A stretch of DNA of 64,000 bases, taken from the IMG/VR virus record IMGVR_UViG_3300042307_000844. One strand, written 5' to 3'. This document shows, one piece after another, positions 538 through 36,882 of this stretch (position 1 is its first letter; each line of letters begins with the position of its first letter). The notes under the pieces were generated by a model. That model searched no databases. It saw nothing but the letters and a program-made list of their open reading frames with translations, and was not told where the DNA came from. Origin of the DNA: a virus. Lineage: Duplodnaviria; Caudoviricetes. The position numbers were made by a program, and so were the translations under genes.

Positions 538-600
538 AAAATTTCCAACCCGCACTATGAGGAAGCAATTCCTGAACAATGTGAATAGAAAGTCAAATAT

Positions 601-2067
601 ATGAATAATCTACCATCTACTGATATCCAAGGCTCCAAGATGCAACAAGCAGTTGCCAAGTGGCGTAAGGTTCTCGATTATAGCTCGGACTCGATCCCAG
701 CTATTCGGAACGAACACGTTTACAAGACCACTGCAATGCTCCTTGAGAACCAAGAACAGTGGTGCTACCAAGAATCGAATACTGCTGCCTCCGGTGGTGT
801 GTTCGGTGCAACGACTTCCATTGGCAACGGTATCGCTAACAGCGACTCCTATGCTACTGGTGATGCTCGTCTGCCAAAGATTCTGATTCCTATGATTCGA
901 CGCACTTTCCCTGAATTGATTTCCAATGAGATCGTAGGCGTTCAGCCTATGGGTGGTCCTGTTGGTCTTGCTTTCGCTCTTCGTTACGCCTATCAAGGTG
1001 ATACTCTGAGCGATAGTAGCATCGACGGCAAGACCTCTGGAGGTGGAACTGGTTCTAGCTTCGGTAATCAGCTTAAAGCTGCTTACGATGGTAGTACTGG
1101 TCTTCCAGACACCGAACTTGGTTATCAACTTCTGGACACACGTTTCACTGGCACATCTGCTGGATTCCTTTCGGGTAACACCGAACACTGGACATTCGCA
1201 GATCAAGACCGTGGTATTGCTGAACTTTTGAGCAACTACGAATTGACGGGTAAAATCCCTCAAATCGAACTCAAGTTTGAAAAGACCGCTGTTGAGGCCG
1301 GAACACGTAGATTAGCTACCCGCTGGTCGGTTGAGTTGGAACAAGACATCAAAAACATGAACGGTATCGATATCGATGGAGAACTTACGAATGCAATGTC
1401 GTATGAAATCCAAGCCGAAATCGACCGCGAAGTTGTGATGCGTATGATCCAAACTGCCTTCAATGCTGGTGCTGGCGCAGGTTTCTCCATCTGGAGTCCT
1501 GTTAGTGCGGATGGACGTTGGACTGCTGAACGGAATCTTACCTTCTATCAACGCCTTATTATCGAAAGTGGTCGTATGGCTGCTCGTAACCGTAGAGGTG
1601 CCGCTAACTTTGTTATCGCCACTCCTCGTGTTTGCAGCATCCTCGAAATGCTTCCTGACTTTAAGGTTTACGAAATCAATGGCACAGTCTCGACTGCTGG
1701 TGTTGGTATCGCAAAAGTTGGTACTGTTGGTAGCCGCTGGACGGTTTATCGTGATACTCGGACTGAAGTTCAGAATTCCTCGCTCTATAGCCCTAACTAC
1801 TACTCTGGTCAAACCAGTGGTGTGGAATATGCGCTGTTGGGTTACAAGGGTTCTGAATACTATGATACTGGTCTGATATACTGTCCGTATATCCCGATCA
1901 TGGTGCAAAGAACGATTGGACCAAATGATTTCGCTCCTCGTGTGGGTCTTATGACTCGTTACGGGATTGTGAACAACATTTTTGGTGCATCGCTCTATTA
2001 CCACCTTATCATCGTAAAGGGTCTTGGTACTGCGTTTACACCGGGGTCGGTTTCAACCTACCTCTAA
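601..2067 (+). CDS. gp23: Major capsid protein (T4 gp23 family)
   Basis: Motifs IPMIRRTFPELISNEIVGVQPMGGPVGLAFALRY, EIQAEIDREV, GLIYCPYIP, FAPRVGLMTRYG. Confidence 0.97.
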   Translation: MNNLPSTDIQGSKMQQAVAKWRKVLDYSSDSIPAIRNEHVYKTTAMLLENQEQWCYQESNTAASGGVFGATTSIGNGIANSDSYATGDARLPKILIPMIRRTFPELISNEIVGVQPMGGPVGLAFALRYAYQGDTLSDSSIDGKTSGGGTGSSFGNQLKAAYDGSTGLPDTELGYQLLDTRFTGTSAGFLSGNTEHWTFADQDRGIAELLSNYELTGKIPQIELKFEKTAVEAGTRRLATRWSVELEQDIKNMNGIDIDGELTNAMSYEIQAEIDREVVMRMIQTAFNAGAGAGFSIWSPVSADGRWTAERNLTFYQRLIIESGRMAARNRRGAANFVIATPRVCSILEMLPDFKVYEINGTVSTAGVGIAKVGTVGSRWTVYRDTRTEVQNSSLYSPNYYSGQTSGVEYALLGYKGSEYYDTGLIYCPYIPIMVQRTIGPNDFAPRVGLMTRYGIVNNIFGASLYYHLIIVKGLGTAFTPGSVSTYL

Positions 2068-9988: not shown

Positions 9989-11134
9989 ATGAGTAAATTA
10001 AAAACAATAATCGACAAATCGTTGGAGAACGTGTTCTGGGTTTCCCATCAGGGGAAATTCCTTGGCTCTTCCGATTACCCCCAAGAATTTGAGCAGAAAT
10101 ATGGGAATATCTCCTATGTGTCTTTGGCAATAGATGACTATCTTTTTGACAAGCAGCAGCTTGAGAGAATCCATGATTTCCTGAGAAAATGGAAATTCGA
10201 TGTCACACAACAATACAAGATCAACGAATACAACACGGGGTATTATTACTGCGACGATCTGACGCTTATGGTTCGGGCTACATTTGGTATGCCGGAAGAT
10301 AAGGTTGAGAAAGAGGATGATGAGGGGGAGGTTTTCTCGCCAAATAGTGGAGGGATCACTATTAGCTTTTCACCTCTGATTAAGAATAGAAAAAATATTG
10401 AGGAATTTTTGAAAGAATTTGTGGATGGGGAATTTCTGTTTCTCCCCACTTCTGAAAAGAACTTTTATATGATTGCTCAGACTCAGCATGGATTAACTAA
10501 GCAGAAAACGAGTTTTGCTGATATTGAAATTAAGGATGATAGATATGATCTATATTATGGAGAAGCGTTTCCAAAAGATAAAATTATGAGCTTTGTTAAG
10601 GATAAACATCCAGAAAGTTTGCTACTTTTTCATGGGGTGCCGGGGTCTGGAAAATCTAACCTGATTAAAAATCTCATCACCGAATGTGAAGATGATGTGA
10701 TCTATATTCCACCCTCCATGGTATCGGTGATCTCCCAACCATCTTTCATATCATTCATGTTAGATAATCGCGGATGCATATTATTAATCGAAGATGCGGA
10801 AGAAATATTATCAGTTGATAGGAATTCGGGAACACAAAATATTTTGGGTATGACCGATGGTTTCCTCCGCGACTGTATGGGTATGCGTATCATTTGCACA
10901 TTCAATTGCGATTTGAAAAAAGTTGATCCAGCCTTATTGCGTAAGGGTAGGCTCTACCTAGAATACCGTTTCGGAGAGCTTTCCATTAAAGATGGTCAGA
11001 GATTAGCTGATCATTGTAATCTTGATATTACAATTGACAAGGAAATGACACTGGCTGATATTTTCAATTATCATAAAGAAAACACTTCTACGAAGTCGTT
11101 TGAGGATCGTCCAATGGGGTTTGGGAATTTTTAA
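9989..11134 (+). CDS. AAA+ ATPase (BCS1-like C-terminal domain)
   Basis: HGVPGSGKS, LLIEDAE, DPALLRKGRL. Confidence 0.85.
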   Translation: MSKLKTIIDKSLENVFWVSHQGKFLGSSDYPQEFEQKYGNISYVSLAIDDYLFDKQQLERIHDFLRKWKFDVTQQYKINEYNTGYYYCDDLTLMVRATFGMPEDKVEKEDDEGEVFSPNSGGITISFSPLIKNRKNIEEFLKEFVDGEFLFLPTSEKNFYMIAQTQHGLTKQKTSFADIEIKDDRYDLYYGEAFPKDKIMSFVKDKHPESLLLFHGVPGSGKSNLIKNLITECEDDVIYIPPSMVSVISQPSFISFMLDNRGCILLIEDAEEILSVDRNSGTQNILGMTDGFLRDCMGMRIICTFNCDLKKVDPALLRKGRLYLEYRFGELSIKDGQRLADHCNLDITIDKEMTLADIFNYHKENTSTKSFEDRPMGFGNF

Positions 11135-11861
11135 TTTTGTTTCCGCCTATGGCATTTTTATTTCCCATCAAACTTTGAGAAATTCTTTTTCTTCGTTCTT
11201 CTGGAACTGGGTTACCATAGCTTGGATTATTTTCACCGCTCAATTTTAGAGATAATTTTAATCTTTCGTTGGGGTCTTCGTATCGTTTTCTCATTATTTC
11301 AGCAGTTTTTCTTTTTCCTTCTTCGGAATTAGCTCGGATTTTTTGTGATCTTCTCATATTTTCAATAGCTTCTGGAGAAGCTTTAACCCCCAATCTAGAC
11401 TTTCTAATATTTTCCCTATGCTCTTCTGTGAATGGTTTCTTTTTCTTACCCTTCTTAGATAAGCTCATATTTATTCTAGCTTCAGGTGATGCTTTCTTTC
11501 CTAATTTAGCTAGTGACATTTTTTTTCTACTTTCTTCACTATATTTTCTTCCAGTATTATCTAAACCTCTAGTGCAAACATTATACCCAAGTGGAACCAA
11601 ACAATTATATTTTATTATTAATTGTTCTTCTAAGTCATGTAAAAATGTTTTATTGACATCTGGTAGGTAGTATATTTCTACGTGGAAATTATTAATACCA
11701 TGTTTTTTAAAAGCTTTTGAAATAACTTGGTGTTTATGGGATCGGTGTTCACTTATTCGTTTATGGATATTCATCGTTTCCCCAATATAATACTTCCCAT
11801 TCACCTCATTGCGAATGATATACACCCCCGGTTTGTTCTCAAATTTATCAGTTAGTCTCAT
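11088..11861 (-). CDS. GIY-YIG homing endonuclease with NUMOD3-type repeats
   Basis: GVYIIRNEVNGKYYIGET...R...H; repeated SEESRKKMS/SPEARINMS units. Confidence 0.9.
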   Translation of the reverse strand: MRLTDKFENKPGVYIIRNEVNGKYYIGETMNIHKRISEHRSHKHQVISKAFKKHGINNFHVEIYYLPDVNKTFLHDLEEQLIIKYNCLVPLGYNVCTRGLDNTGRKYSEESRKKMSLAKLGKKASPEARINMSLSKKGKKKKPFTEEHRENIRKSRLGVKASPEAIENMRRSQKIRANSEEGKRKTAEIMRKRYEDPNERLKLSLKLSGENNPSYGNPVPEERRKRISQSLMGNKNAIGGNKIKNSQTPLDDPQTTS

Positions 11862-28801: not shown

Positions 28802-29370
28802 TTTTCATCAGAAAACGATTGAAGAAAAATCACAGTATTTTCATTCTTTATCTGACAAAGATGTGTATGATTTATCACCATCTATGTCTTTTATATTTTA
28901 TAAAACCAATAACATCGAGGGATGTTTATATGATGGATGGTATTATGATAAGGTTGTAATTAATAAAAATGCCTCAACATATCAACAAAAATTAATTTGT
29001 AAGGTAGTGGAAAAATATTATGGGTTTTTGAAATGGGATGACATATTGGGATCGCAAAAAATAGTTAATCACATTAAAACATTATGAATAAAAAACATCC
29101 ACATTATAAGGCAACTGTTGTGAGATACAGAGGGATCGGTGGCGGATTTAAAATTAAATGCAAAGACGGATCATTGTCTGATGAAACATACGGAACTAGG
29201 AAAGGTGCGGAGAAAATGATCAACGGAACATTTGGAAGTGCTGGAGGTATTAGATGAAAACAAAGGAAGAGCTTTTAGAGGAATGGAAAGATGATGATAA
29301 TGTGGAAGGTGAATGAGTGTAAGAATGCTGGATTAAAAACTAGATTATTATAAAGTGATTAAATAATCAA

Positions 29371-31663: not shown

Positions 31664-33688
31664 TTATAGATATTTATAATAGAGTTTATACAATTGTGGA
31701 TAATTGTATTTTTTGGATAAATCTTCAAATTCTTCAGGGTTGGTTGCTACGGTTTTCAACATGTGTAAGGCATACAATCTAAAAGCATTTATAATGTGGG
31801 GATACATATCATCAACAAATTGAACGAATTGATAATTTTTATTATCCATTTTGGGAAAGAGCATTTTGAGATTTGTGAATTCCAAATCCCCATAATTGAA
31901 ATGTGTATTACCCGACAACATATAATCAACCCCATCCAGAGGATTGGAATACGACTCGAAAAATTTGTCAAATTGTAACTGCGCCGGATCATTATCCAAC
32001 TTCGGTTTGAAATTTTCCATAGCCAGTTTTGTTATGATGTTTTCCAACACTCCTTTTGATTGACCATGTTTACTATCCATAACACCCTGAAGAGCATGGC
32101 GGAAATCCTCAAGAATAATAAGTCTGCTTGGAAATCTTACAGTAAAGGATTTCCTGACATCGTTGCCTGAAATTGTCAGGGTGTCGAACGGTTCTTCTTC
32201 CATTTCAATATAATCTTCAATCATGGAGAAATTGCTATCTCCGCTTGCAGCGGTTTTTATAAACCCACCATCAATAAGCACTGTATAAAGCTCATCCTCA
32301 TCATCCAACATATCCTCAATCTTATCGTCAAAATTCTTCATATAGTGACAATATGTATCAAATTTATCGGAATCATTATGATATTCCTCTTCTGAAAAGT
32401 GGATTTCCAAGCTGGTGTTGGTTAGGATCATTCGATATATGTTGATGTCGGTAGCGTCATATATGTATTGGAACAATTGGGAATACTCATAATCATCATC
32501 ATATTTCCCATCCCTAGCTTTACTCACATCATAATCTTCAGCTTCCAACTCGACATCATCCGGTAAATTGAACTTGGTTAAATCGATGGTTGATGTTCCG
32601 CTTGCTTGGAAATATACTTCTTCATCGTCCATCAAGTAATAATCAACACTACTATATGTCAACCTGCCGTTATATTCCTCTTTTATTTCTTCCAGTTCAT
32701 CTTCCAGACCCAATTGGGAATGTCTGCTTTCCCCCCTTTCATCATCCCGATCATGGTTTATTCGTTTGAAATCGGATGAGTCTTGGGTGGATTCCTCATC
32801 CGTGAAATAATTGGCAACCAGATCAAGGATTTCATCATCATAATAAGTTCCCCCCTTTTTCGTATAGGAATTACCACGGAAATCTTCGGGAGTGGTTGTT
32901 TGTTTATTTTTCAGATAATTTACCAAGGATTTGTAGAAATTGGGGATTGCGGTATCTCCATATATCTTGGTATCGGGAATGGCAATCTCATCTCCGTAAT
33001 CATCCACCAATCGACGAACACGCAAACGGGACATGGGGCGCAATCCATATGCACCGGATATGCCCCTGTCGGAATCAACGAATATTTCCCTCTTCTGAAA
33101 GTCCTCTTCCGTAAGCTCATTGAAATCCTCTTCTCGCACCACATAAGCCACAGCACCTCCTGAAATGGCTTCTTGGATGGCACACTGGAAATATCCCCCA
33201 CCTTGGGAATGACAGGATGATATGTTGCGGTGATCGGACATGCGAACCACATCAATGGGAGCGCGGGAAAGGATGACTATGAATTCCGGTTTCTCAAACG
33301 CGGATTCCAGATTGTCCTTATACATTGCAAACCAATCCAGATATTTTTTCTTTTTATTCTCCGATACTTTCAGGGCAGCAATGGCTTTACCAATGTTGAT
33401 TTTCTGTTCCTTGTGTTCCCCCTGCCCATATTTTGGATCAAGCTTTATTTTTCTGATGACTTCCCCTTTTTTCAAATCCACCTTGTCAAAATGCTGAATT
33501 CTTTTCAGGTCATCCATGATACTCTGAGCCGTGATGTCCGTCCCGATTGGAAATGCCACACGCATTTTGTCTCCAAAAATATGATCAAAAGGTAAGACAT
33601 CCGAATGTTGGTTGAGATAATCCACGACCTTTTGGTTCATCTCTGTGATGAGGACGGATTCGTAGAGTTCTTGGAGTTGGAAAATCAT
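31664..33688 (-). CDS. Large acidic hypothetical late protein
   Basis: Long ORF; TAAATA-N5-ATG at 33688. Confidence 0.75.
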   Translation of the reverse strand: MIFQLQELYESVLITEMNQKVVDYLNQHSDVLPFDHIFGDKMRVAFPIGTDITAQSIMDDLKRIQHFDKVDLKKGEVIRKIKLDPKYGQGEHKEQKINIGKAIAALKVSENKKKKYLDWFAMYKDNLESAFEKPEFIVILSRAPIDVVRMSDHRNISSCHSQGGGYFQCAIQEAISGGAVAYVVREEDFNELTEEDFQKREIFVDSDRGISGAYGLRPMSRLRVRRLVDDYGDEIAIPDTKIYGDTAIPNFYKSLVNYLKNKQTTTPEDFRGNSYTKKGGTYYDDEILDLVANYFTDEESTQDSSDFKRINHDRDDERGESRHSQLGLEDELEEIKEEYNGRLTYSSVDYYLMDDEEVYFQASGTSTIDLTKFNLPDDVELEAEDYDVSKARDGKYDDDYEYSQLFQYIYDATDINIYRMILTNTSLEIHFSEEEYHNDSDKFDTYCHYMKNFDDKIEDMLDDEDELYTVLIDGGFIKTAASGDSNFSMIEDYIEMEEEPFDTLTISGNDVRKSFTVRFPSRLIILEDFRHALQGVMDSKHGQSKGVLENIITKLAMENFKPKLDNDPAQLQFDKFFESYSNPLDGVDYMLSGNTHFNYGDLEFTNLKMLFPKMDNKNYQFVQFVDDMYPHIINAFRLYALHMLKTVATNPEEFEDLSKKYNYPQLYKLYYKYL

Positions 33689-33716: not shown

Positions 33717-33797
33717 TGGTAGATGCTGAGGGAATCGAACCCAATCTCTGAGAGGATCAAAACCTCTAGTGCTAAAAAACCGTTACACTACGCATCA
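33717..33797 (-). tRNA. tRNA-Gln(UUG), atypical
   Basis: AC arm AGAGG-TTTTGAT-CCTCT, TTCGA loop, CCA end; enlarged D loop and acceptor-stem mismatches. Confidence 0.72.
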
Positions 33798-33807
33798 ATT
33801 ATAAAAA

Positions 33808-33905
33808 TGGTCTAGGTGACAGGATTCGAACCTGCGAGAGACAGACACTTACTGCCCCCAAGTAGTTCCAAGCTACCCCGATTACCAAGCTATCGCAACA
33901 CCTAG
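33808..33905 (-). tRNA. tRNA-Pro(UGG) with a long variable arm
   Basis: CTAGGTG/CACCTAG-A-CCA acceptor; GGTAG-CTTGGAA-CTACT; ~25-nt variable region. Confidence 0.88.
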
Positions 33906-33908
33906 ATA

Positions 33909-33995
33909 TGGTGTGTCACATAGGATTCGAACCTACTCAGCCCAAAGGCAAATGATTTACAGTCATTCTCAACTCTCCAACTTTGACGGTGACAC
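33909..33995 (-). tRNA. tRNA-Tyr(GUA)
   Basis: AATGA-CTGTAAA-TCATT, long variable arm, CCA. Confidence 0.95.
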
Positions 33996-34008
33996 ATATT
34001 AAAAAAAG

Positions 34009-34081
34009 AGCCGTAGGAGGAATTCGAATCCCCGACCACCGAATTACAAATTCGACGCTCTACCAACTGAGCTACTACGGC
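34009..34081 (-). tRNA. tRNA-Thr(UGU), no encoded CCA
   Basis: TCGAA-TTTGTAA-TTCGG; GCCGTAG/CTACGGC. Confidence 0.93.
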
Positions 34082-34086
34082 ATTGA

Positions 34087-34158
34087 CACTTCTGAGGGGA
34101 ATCGAACCCCTATTTGGTGGATGAAAACCACCCGTCCTAACCATTAGACGACAGAAGC
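34087..34158 (-). tRNA. tRNA-Glu(UUC), no encoded CCA
   Basis: GGTGG-TTTTCAT-CCACC; GCTTCTG/CAGAAGT. Confidence 0.93.
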
Positions 34159-34284
34159 AAAATTGGCTCGCTTATTTGTTGACGGAGGCATTAGTCTTTC
34201 GACAGCGAACGATGATCACTATTACGATCCTCTCCGAAGCAGTTTTTTGATTTGGGGACATACTCAGCCCAAGATTTTATAAAA

Positions 34285-34359
34285 TGGCTCTCAGGGTAGG
34301 ATTCGAACCTACAACCTAGAAATTAACAGTTTCCCGCTCTACCATTGAGCTACCTGAGA
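34285..34359 (-). tRNA. tRNA-Asn(GUU)
   Basis: GGAAA-CTGTTAA-TTTCT; CCA. Confidence 0.95.
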
Positions 34360-34361
34360 TT

Positions 34362-34438
34362 TGGTGAGAGTCGCGGGATTTGAACCCACAAGACCACGGA
34401 TTAAAAGTCCGTTGCTTTACCAAATAAGCTTCACTCTC
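34362..34438 (-). tRNA. tRNA-Lys(UUU)
   Basis: ACGGA-CTTTTAA-TCCGT; CCA. Confidence 0.95.
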
Positions 34439-34522
34439 ATAATATTAAAAACATTCAGTGTGCTTGTTTCATCACAATCTCCCTTTCGGACTTTAATGTG
34501 TTCGGCCACATAACCCCTAGAT

Positions 34523-34554
34523 AACAAAAAACCCCATCTTGTTAAGGATGGGGT
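34523..34554 (-). terminator. Intrinsic terminator in the leader of the tRNA operon
   Basis: ACCCCATC-CTTAACAA-GATGGGGT followed by TTTTTGTT on the minus strand. Confidence 0.88.
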
Positions 34555-34582
34555 GAAAACGAAACAGGATATTACCATATAA

Positions 34583-34645
34583 TCATTTGCACCGCCACCC
34601 AGATGGTGTCGGTTTCTCCTGATTATAATTTTGGTTGTTGCTCAT
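34583..34645 (-). CDS. Putative attenuator leader peptide MSNNQNYNQEKPTPSGWRCK
   Basis: 20-codon ORF with ATG directly after a promoter-like sequence, 29 nt before the terminator; codons 3-14 match the downstream tRNAs. Confidence 0.75.
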   Translation of the reverse strand: MSNNQNYNQEKPTPSGWRCK

Positions 34646-34889
34646 GTCGTTATTCTTATTTAGCAGATGCGTTTAGATTTTCAAGTTCTTTTATAATAAA
34701 ATTTCATTCATTTGATCAATTATCTCATTAATATTGATTGGAGATGCGTTTGTTTTATAGAATTGTGCTGCTGGTGAATACCAATTAACCCAATGGGTAA
34801 TATTCTCAATAGATACACCATTCAAATATTTGGAGTAAATGAGTAAATCAATATCAGCAAAATCCATCTCTTTTAATTCTTTGTCCATA

Positions 34890-35309: not shown

Positions 35310-36716
35310 GTCTTTATTGTATTCTAGTTTTTAAGGCACTCCAGCCCGTAATCGTTTTGATCTTCCGTTGTGATAGGAATTACTGGCGGCAAACAACGTT
35401 CCTTTATCATTATAGATGGGAACCTTACCAAAGCTGATCATATACCAGAGAAAGTGGATGTCAATCCTCCTGTCCATGCAGATGTGAATACCAAAGGAAA
35501 TATCGGGATATCCGAAATCGGTGATCCAGAATTTTTTAATCTTGTGGAATTTCATTCTTATCCTTACAAGTTCTTTTCCACTTAAACCATTTCAACCATT
35601 TGCAGGTTGAGGTTTCGTTTTTGATTTTCTTTCGTAGCTTTTTATATTTCATATCATGCGGGATGCTTCCCAATCCGCCAAAGGACGGGCATTGTAATTA
35701 CAATCAATATTGTGAACCTCTCGCCAATTTGCCAGACAGGATAGCTCATTAGCGAGATCATCAGCCAATTTCCTTTCGGCATTGAGATCATCGAGACGAT
35801 CATTCAACTGATCGATGATAGATTGTAGGGCATCACGGGAACCGATGAACAGTTCATCACATTCCGCGATTTCCAGCTTGCCGTTTTTCCTTCGATGTAG
35901 GACTACTTGACTTGGTTCTTCTTTGTTCATATTTTTACAAATGTCCCATCTTCAACCGCTTTACGAATATATCTCATAAAGTATATTGCCTTGTCATGAT
36001 TTTGGAAGGTTGCATCTCCACAATCCTCAATAGGAACAGGGAATCTATAAAGACCGCATTCATCTTCTGGTAATCCATTACCAATAACAACTACGTTATA
36101 ATATAGAATACCTTTACGATACTCTACAAATCTCACATAATTTTTATCTACAATTTGTTTTATTGTTAATTTCATTTTATACTTGATCCGAATTTTTTAT
36201 CAATCTTTGCTTTTTCGGTGACATCTTCCACTGATCTTGTGCCTTGACTAACACCAATCACTTCCCATCCATCTTCCCAAGTCTTATCATCCTTTTTGAT
36301 TTTGATGAACTTATTCATCACGGCGAATTTTGAAGGAATCCATGCCATATGATGTTGGTTTATTCGCTTGAGTGAACATTGTGTGTATGTATCTTTTTTC
36401 ATAATTTTAATCAGTAATATAATATAAACCCCATCTTTCACAAACAAAATTGAGACTATCCTTGATAAATTCCCGCATTGTTTTATCATTGTTTGGTGTA
36501 ATAACTTCAAACCAAACCCCTCTAAGTTCCGATATGAATGAAAAATCTTTTATAAATTCCTGTTTCAAAGAATCATCGGGAAGCAGTAACAGCCCCCTTG
36601 AGTAATTTTCTATGTTTATTGTGGTATGAAAATCATATTTTCCTTCTTCAAGATCAACAATGGTTGCGTTATTTTTAGTTCTTATATAGTGTGTCATATT
36701 TTTATTTTTTTGAAAG

Positions 36717-36794: not shown

Positions 36795-36882
36795 TTGCGG
36801 GAGTGGAATTTGAATCCACAACAGGACTTTAACCTTTCTCTTGGTTATGAGCCAAGGATTTTACCAATTAAACTACCCCGCG
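36795..36882 (-). tRNA. Initiator-type tRNA-Met(CAU) with a long variable region
   Basis: C1:A72 mismatch, CGCGGGG 5' end, CTTGG-CTCATAA-CCAAG, 20-nt variable region, no CCA. Confidence 0.82.

Follow-up and report, generated by a model that had tools for sequence, protein, structure and literature searches.

Leader-peptide attenuators of enterobacteria include trpL, hisL, pheL and leuL, together with the multivalent leaders thrL (Thr and Ile codons) and ilvL of the ilvGMEDA operon (Leu, Val and Ile codons). A leader of comparable design precedes seven tRNA genes in a 64,000-nucleotide stretch of phage DNA (Duplodnaviria; Caudoviricetes; IMG/VR record IMGVR_UViG_3300042307_000844), referred to here as the window. 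On the minus strand, a promoter-like site is followed by a leader open reading frame (ORF) of 20 codons, an intrinsic terminator, a spacer of 87 nt and the tRNA genes, and the unit probably represents multivalent leader-peptide (ribosome-mediated) transcription attenuation that gates the phage tRNA operon. As in trp-type attenuators, a short ORF carries the control codons and the predicted signal is the supply of charged tRNA; the untranslated RNA is predicted to adopt a 1:2 fold, a 2:3 antiterminator would compete with a 3:4 intrinsic terminator, and the stop codon is sited so that a finishing ribosome would mask segment 2. Unlike trp-type attenuators, the phage element is viral and would regulate tRNA genes rather than biosynthetic enzymes. 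Its control codons list 7-10 amino acids with one to four codons each, whereas trp-type leaders contain runs of one to three kinds. Its mRNA is predicted to be leaderless or nearly so and has no Shine-Dalgarno sequence, and its antiterminator overlaps the terminator by only 3 nt.

T-box riboswitches work without a ribosome by binding uncharged tRNA directly, and they regulate amino-acid genes as well as those of aminoacyl-tRNA synthetases. The phage leader is T-box-like in that a leader RNA would sense tRNA status and switch between terminator and antiterminator, but its sensing would proceed via the ribosome. A search for a T-box or another Rfam leader or small RNA (sRNA) family yielded nothing but matches over the terminator that were below threshold and at chance level (NsiR1, 24 bits versus 39), and no Rfam family matched the leader, the spacer or a 125-nt gap within the tRNA cluster above threshold. 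In mycobacteria, polycysteine leaderless short ORFs act as cysteine-responsive attenuators (bioRxiv 10.1101/834739). According to the consulted part of that preprint, these ORFs share with the phage unit a leaderless or near-leaderless position at the 5' end of a polycistronic transcript and a translation-coupled attenuator, whereas the system described there senses one amino acid and controls cellular protein-coding operons, with neither tRNA genes nor a codon checklist.

Leader codons and the tRNA set of the cluster

A first-pass annotation made from the letters of the window had pointed to the leader ORF, to its restricted codons and to a terminator with a T tract ahead of seven tRNA genes. 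The ORF has the sequence and coordinates proposed there, and the terminator was recovered by a terminator scan. Six of the seven tRNAs were found readily by ARAGORN, while tRNA-Gln is weak and falls below the Rfam threshold for tRNA (29 bits); its orthologues in relatives are well scored. The codons of the restricted stretch specify only Asn, Gln, Tyr, Glu, Lys, Pro and Thr, the amino acids of the seven tRNAs. Since these account for 38.6% of the residues in the long ORFs of the phage, the probability of 12 in a row by chance is about 1e-5, and the value of 1e-6 first suggested was too low. None of the 10,497 12-mers in the long ORFs falls wholly within the seven-residue set. Among the 844 short ATG ORFs of the window (15-40 codons), the leader contains the longest run of such residues (12), the next best being 8.

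Relatives were gathered via the neighbouring gene for a 673-aa protein, via leader DNA patterns and via spacer DNA patterns; two of the leader pattern scans gave mostly chance matches among the matches listed, and a repeat protein-profile scan returned the same five loci. These relatives (labelled L plus a number) are uncultured lake T4-like phages, and 15 distinct leader/cluster combinations were obtained, showing that the leader is present in related phages. It is alignable in 14 of the 15, and L293 has a non-alignable, analogous leader ORF in the same slot. The 14 alignable leaders all start with ATG, stop with TGA and comprise 20-21 codons. Indels between clades occur only in threes (minus AAT, plus GCN, and plus CAA in L319). 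Codons 9 (CAG/CAA, Gln), 11 (AAA/AAG, Lys) and 15 (CCA/CCG/CCC, Pro) show synonymous variation only, and many other positions vary freely in amino acid, such as position 4 (N/D/E/Q/T) and position 16 (S/Y/C/N/I/K). A poorly conserved peptide in a frame that is nevertheless kept does not fit a conserved peptide or an sRNA seed and instead fits selection on the tRNAs that the codons call for. The leader travels with the tRNA cluster and was not found in the relatives that have no cluster (L299, L301 and L304).

The restricted stretch spans codons 3-14 in clade A, the clade of the window, and codons 2-15 in clade B, and across the relatives codons 2-15 specify almost solely amino acids with a tRNA downstream. 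The seven core tRNAs recur in nearly every cluster, and the informative cases are the extra tRNAs; the matching leader codons given below can be read by them. In clade B (L005, L014, L258, L288, L294, L296 and L319), an extra tRNA-Ala (UGC) is accompanied by GCA or GCG in the leader, while clade A has no tRNA-Ala in its clusters and no Ala codon in its leaders. An extra tRNA-Ile (GAU) in L294 and L319 is matched by AUU, and an extra tRNA-Ser (UGA) in L319 by UCA. L302, which has extra tRNA-Arg (ACG) and tRNA-Gly (UCC), has CGA where every other leader has CAA, and GGG in place of GAG. In L293, extra tRNA-His (GUG) and tRNA-Met are matched by CAC and an internal AUG, and all seven identities of its cluster are found within leader codons 2-12 (chance 3e-4 for 11 residues).

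The agreement extends to whole leaders. In L005, L014 and L294, a cluster tRNA exists for each of the 14 sensor amino acids; the same is true of L296 (14/14, or 13/14 by strict codon reading) and of L319 (15/15, or 14/15 by strict codon reading). Conversely, every identity in the cluster is represented in the leaders of L005, L014, L296 and L319 (10/10 in the last), and L294 is without a Glu codon (8/9). The Ser, Ala and Ile tRNAs of L319 were forecast from its leader before ARAGORN was run, and all three were then found. A tRNA of L296 that ARAGORN calls Cys is the orthologue of the Ala tRNA, with the anticodon loop UUUGCAA and G3:U70. In the same leader, the Thr codon is gone from position 13 and present at position 4, so that the identity is kept while its place has moved. 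A label permutation that preserves sharing among relatives was applied to the 13 non-core amino acids, of which seven (Ala, Ile, Ser, Arg, Gly, His and Met) are matched types (P = 3e-5); without L293 there are five matched types (P = 6e-4). The codon content of the leader therefore co-varies with the tRNA set, as the first-pass annotation had anticipated.

Alternative RNA folds and the predicted switch

In every variant, the minimum free energy (MFE) fold of the free RNA consists of a helix P1, a hairpin P2 enclosed by P1, and the terminator. P2 is the 1:2 hairpin that had been described at the outset. The coding strand of P1, UAUAAUCA, is invariant in 12 of 13 leaders, and its non-coding strand shows mostly A/G changes that preserve U-A or U-G pairs, with one mismatch each in L240, L294 and L302. 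In the RNAalifold consensus, one P2 pair changes from GC to UA. The terminator found by the scan has the form ACCCCATC, an 8-nt loop and GATGGGGT, followed by the T tract. Its alignment cells are 100% paired (12 distinct sequences), and one pair covaries (CG/UA/UG).

In a further helix, the antiterminator, the final ORF codons (window, GGUGCAAA; most relatives, GGCGUGAA) pair with the 5' flank of the terminator (UUUUCACC or UUCGCGCC). The pairing proposed initially for segments 2 and 3 (GGGUGG with UCACCC) is not conserved outside clade A and gives way to this helix, formed in the window by GGUGCAAA and UUUUCACC; the likeness between segments 1 and 3 that had been noted along with it holds in the window's own clade and fails in clade B. 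In alignment A3, the antiterminator cells are paired in 93.8% of cases versus 40-60% in slid controls. Three of its pairs have changed on both sides (CG/UA, UG/CG/AU and GC/AU/GU), so that, with the one terminator pair, the compensatory changes looked for in the stems are present, and RNAalifold agrees: unprompted, it selects the antiterminator helix with P2 and a shortened terminator. The antiterminator cannot nest with P1, occupies the three basal pairs of the terminator beside the U tract and does not belong to the free-RNA MFE fold. That it is conserved in spite of this suggests that P1 is kept open in some state, as it would be by a ribosome on the first half of the ORF.

Ribosome positions were modelled by letting the ribosome cover 12 nt past the first base of the A-site codon. 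In this model, stalls at codons ~3-14 open P1 and leave segment 2 free, whereas later stalls and stalls at the stop codon cover segment 2. When the masked RNA was folded, the probability of the terminator's basal pairs fell from ~0.8-0.87 to <=0.35 for stalls at codons ~8-14 in 10 of the 13 alignable leaders that were modelled and returned to ~0.87 from codon 15 onward. In most variants, masking codons ~8-14 thus turns the predicted terminator fold into the antiterminator fold, in line with the original proposal, although this is an equilibrium model and the real decision is kinetic.

The leader has no Shine-Dalgarno sequence, and its promoter-like site ends 11 nt upstream of the ATG; the two hexamers of this site are invariant in all relatives while the spacer between them is variable. 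Two other copies of TTGAAA-N-TAAATA in the window lie 5-8 nt before an ATG. In addition, there are about 75 occurrences of the 8-mer AAAAACTA in the window phage; nearly every one is followed by a small gene whose ATG lies exactly 15 or 18 nt further on, and a -10-like hexamer (TAAGAT, ATAAT, ACAAT or ATACT) ends ~6 nt before the ATG of these genes. The boxes are located at 40000-63000 on the minus strand, also at 35332 and 37745, and at 29335 on the plus strand. Judging from this layout, each small gene seems to have its own promoter and a leaderless mRNA. Because boxes at a fixed distance of 15 or 18 nt before the ATG fit leaderless mRNAs, the missing Shine-Dalgarno sequence is no objection to translation of the leader. 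A second promoter considered inside the ORF (ACGACA-N17-TATAAT) was rejected, the spacing being 17 nt in clade A versus 14 nt in clade B.

From the comparative data we infer that the ORF is translated, that stalling switches the fold and that the switch affects readthrough. A strong promoter would start the RNA a few nt before the AUG of the 20-codon ORF. In untranslated RNA, P1 would enclose P2, the terminator would form and transcription would end before the tRNAs. A ribosome that reaches the stop codon would cover the last codons (segment 2), and the terminator would again form. With a ribosome slowed or stalled at codons ~3-14, P1 would be open and segment 2 free to pair just 5' of the terminator, taking the three basal pairs beside the U tract; termination would be weakened and RNA polymerase would read into the tRNA genes. 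As each downstream tRNA species has one to four sensing codons (seven species here, up to 10 in relatives), the leader would report a shortage of any such charged tRNA, and the unit would switch itself off as the phage tRNAs build up.

Competing explanations and significance

The comparative tests support the attenuator interpretation put forward in the first-pass annotation, and several observations weigh against it. The sensing window and the cluster boundaries were set after part of the data had been seen. The overlap between antiterminator and terminator is far smaller than in trp or his. The equilibrium switch is absent or weak in L240 and narrow in L002, and there is none in L293, whose antiterminator (GGAGG.../...CCUCC) is weak, visible by eye and not favoured at equilibrium. 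The leader is also more stable than the tRNA set. L003 and L004 retain Ala codons and have an HNH endonuclease gene at the place of their relatives' tRNA-Ala. In L267, where the Asn/Lys tRNA is chimeric and a Tyr tRNA is lacking, Lys, Asn and Tyr are lost or scrambled, and in L288 and L264 a tRNA with a UGA anticodon (Ser) replaces Thr. Ala and Thr codons of L302 are unmatched, and its Met and Ile tRNAs are missing from the leader; the L001 leader contains one Asp codon, and in clade A, which has no tRNA-Ser, positions 2 and 15 of the leader are Ser codons. While the relatives with a tRNA cluster otherwise have the ORF, one contig, the rearranged L295, has no recognisable leader beside the five tRNAs that it retains. 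Finally, the window promoter scan found no sigma-70-like promoter between the terminator and tRNA-Lys, which gives no sign of separate transcription of the tRNAs from a downstream site, but the conserved, unstructured spacer could provide room for a phage-type promoter, a processing site or a protein site.

The tRNA clusters have been hit repeatedly by HNH endonuclease genes. ORFs of 170-220 aa are inserted at differing places in the clusters (L003:4396-5016, L258:6574-7217, L267:2842-3480, L005:929-1656, L002:5236-5804 and L302:1915-2586), with clear HNH motifs in at least two of them (L003 and L005). As the inserted ORFs often coincide with a missing or altered tRNA, the clusters appear to be hot spots of homing endonucleases. 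The UGA tRNA of L288 (651-726) and L264 (5189-5264) is 76 nt long, has no long variable arm and occupies the slot that tRNA-Thr (UGU) has in near-identical relatives; it may be a Thr tRNA with a switched anticodon.

A translated leader might sense the same tRNAs and act on a different output, namely the processing or stability of the tRNA precursor (for example via the spacer) or the access of Rho. Co-variation of codons and tRNAs would suit any translation-coupled sensor, and the 3-nt overlap of the 2:3 helix with the terminator, the weak equilibrium switch of some variants and a spacer that is conserved in sequence and unstructured would all agree with such an output. The spacer occurs in two unrelated conserved types of ~85 nt. 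Type A has the same sequence in the window, L240, L096 and L296, and type B is found in the other relatives (e.g. L001:5123-5199 and L003:3823-3901) and contains GTGGTGAAAGACTAAT; a structured RNA was rejected for both, their fold z-scores not being below those of shuffles. Leader clades have exchanged the two types, so the spacer shows no co-adaptation to the leader. Moreover, a canonical terminator with 100% pairing is present in all 15 units, and the conserved alternative helix takes exactly the basal pairs of the terminator beside the U tract. An output other than termination is therefore unlikely.

A stand-alone small gene, encoding a 20-residue peptide or an sRNA and ending in an ordinary terminator, would explain why the unit has its own promoter and terminator. 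The tRNAs would then be transcribed by leak-through or from a promoter in the spacer, and the codon match would reflect the make-up of an A-rich, hydrophilic region. An A/C-rich 5' half does yield Asn, Lys, Gln, Thr and Pro codons regardless of function, and UAUAAUCA and ACACC are constrained by helices P1 and P2. Such a gene, however, offers no reason for non-core codons to track the tRNA content of the cluster at the P value of the full permutation and leaves the relocation of the Thr codon within the ORF unexplained. Its peptide would be poorly conserved (positions 2-6, 10, 12, 15-16 and 19-20 vary), an sRNA seed would not preserve the reading frame through indels, and a helix that conflicts with the free-RNA fold is still conserved by covariation. 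As to the spacer promoter, spacer B holds AAAGACTAAT, one mismatch from the recurrent AAAAACTA box. A box promoter there was judged unlikely because the ~75 boxes before genes are all exact and carry A at the position that is G in the spacer, and spacer A of the window is without the motif. Taken together, a stand-alone gene is improbable. That the ORF arose by chance beside a terminator is very improbable indeed, for although short ORFs of its size are as abundant in the window as counted above, this one has been kept in 15 lineages, stands out within its own genome and shows both codon co-variation and structural covariation.

Why phages carry tRNA genes is a 50-year-old question, currently answered by codon compensation and by evasion of defences that cleave tRNAs. 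In the literature searched, no account of such leader control for tRNA genes was found. If attenuation by the leader peptide is correct, the phage treats tRNA supply as a regulated quantity, and from the leader it could be read out, directly and in a testable way, which tRNAs are limiting for translation during infection. Leader-peptide attenuation would also be extended from amino-acid operons to RNA genes, with a checklist of up to 10 species in one 20-codon ORF. Because the codon/tRNA rule was predictive for the Ser, Ala and Ile tRNAs of L319, it could be used for finding such units and for annotating odd phage tRNAs.

A more specific idea, which we regard as possible but doubtful, is that the leader is a phage-borne alarm for attack on host tRNAs. 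Removal of any listed species by an anticodon nuclease or by phage-induced decay would stall a ribosome on the checklist ORF, and replacement tRNAs would be made within seconds. Several of the Lys, Asn, Tyr, Thr, Glu and Gln tRNAs are known nuclease targets, which fits this idea. It also fits that genes for RNA ligase, PTH2 peptidyl-tRNA hydrolase and an RF-1-domain protein (of ArfB-like size) are found near the tRNA region of relatives (Pfam; L296:2182-2586 and 10997-11410, L299:8639-9754, L304:967-1275 and L300:6924-7349); together they are a translation-rescue and RNA-repair tool kit. Phage tRNAs serve as counter-defence against tRNA-cleaving host systems (eLife 2023, PMC10264068; Nat Commun 2024, PMC11555353), which makes a link between the leader and anticodon nucleases plausible. 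The consulted parts of these two studies explain why Lys, Asn, Tyr, Thr, Glu and Gln tRNAs would be needed on demand by a phage; they concern the tRNAs themselves and describe no sensor of tRNA gene expression. The data would be accounted for just as well by simple feedback control of tRNA supply.

The locus and its surroundings

The window phage is T4-like by its portal, tail-sheath stabiliser and ribonucleotide reductase genes and was detected in lake-water metagenomes, whereas a search of RNA sequencing runs returned none containing it. No close cultured relative was found, INPHARED blastn matches being to tRNAs only, and the best identity of the portal protein to T4-like phages is 29%. The features of the leader and tRNA cluster are listed in the table.

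Table. Elements of the leader and tRNA cluster, in window coordinates
Feature	Position	Strand	Sequence or description	Basis or remark
Promoter-like site	34657..34684	-	TTGAAA-N16-TAAATA, TG before second hexamer	Pattern match
Leader ORF	34583..34645	-	20 codons + TGA, MSNNQNYNQEKPTPSGWRCK	Listed as 20-aa ATG ORF
P1, 5' strand	34620..34627	-	UAUAAUCA (codons 7-9)	Pairs with UGAUUAUA in MFE fold
P1, 3' strand	34578..34585	-	UGAUUAUA (stop codon + 5 nt)	
P2 hairpin (1:2)	34591..34613	-	ACCG-A-CACC / AUCUG loop / GGUG-G-CGGU	
Antiterminator, 5' strand (segment 2)	34586..34593	-	GGUGCAAA, last ORF codons	Partner 34552-34559
Antiterminator, 3' strand (segment 3)	34552..34559	-	UUUUCACC	Last 3 nt (ACC) also terminator stem base
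Intrinsic terminator	34526..34554	-	Stem ACCCCAUC / GAUGGGGU, 8-nt loop, U tract	Terminator scan
Conserved spacer, type A	34439..34525	-	Terminator to first tRNA	
tRNA-Lys (UUU)	34362..34438	-		ARAGORN, Rfam
tRNA-Asn (GUU)	34285..34359	-		ARAGORN, Rfam
tRNA-Glu (UUC)	34085..34159	-		ARAGORN, Rfam
tRNA-Thr (UGU)	34008..34081	-		ARAGORN, Rfam
tRNA-Tyr (GUA)	33909..33995	-		ARAGORN
tRNA-Pro (UGG)	33808..33905	-	98 nt, long extra arm	ARAGORN, weak Rfam match
tRNA-Gln (UUG)	33720..33797	-	Atypical	Rfam 28.3 bits, ARAGORN at relaxed threshold only

The other tRNA clusters of the window (36882, 45917 and 50875) are not preceded by a similar leader, and the tRNAs there directly follow genes. The 673-aa protein is encoded directly after the tRNA cluster (31664-33685, minus strand) and is followed by a CCA-adding enzyme; it has no Pfam match. 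More than 130 metagenomic homologues were found, with identity down to 28%, often beside genes for a CCA-adding enzyme, MazG, PTH2 or RNA ligase, and homologues below ~50% identity have no tRNAs nearby. The protein is possibly tRNA-related.

Between tRNA-Asn and tRNA-Glu of the window lies a non-tRNA element of 125 nt (34160-34284, minus strand) that is missing from most relatives and carries AAAGACTAAT, the motif common to spacer B. In L319, a non-coding stretch of 215 nt between tRNA-Ala and tRNA-Ser (552-765, minus strand) is richer in G+C than its surroundings. Some of the tRNAs have degenerate arms, including Gln in the window, Asn in L240 and L293, and Lys in L300. Others are oversized, with tRNA-Pro (UGG) of 96-98 nt and tRNA-Met (CAU) of 88 nt (window 33808-33905 and 36795-36882; L293:5442-5537; L302:2765-2862).

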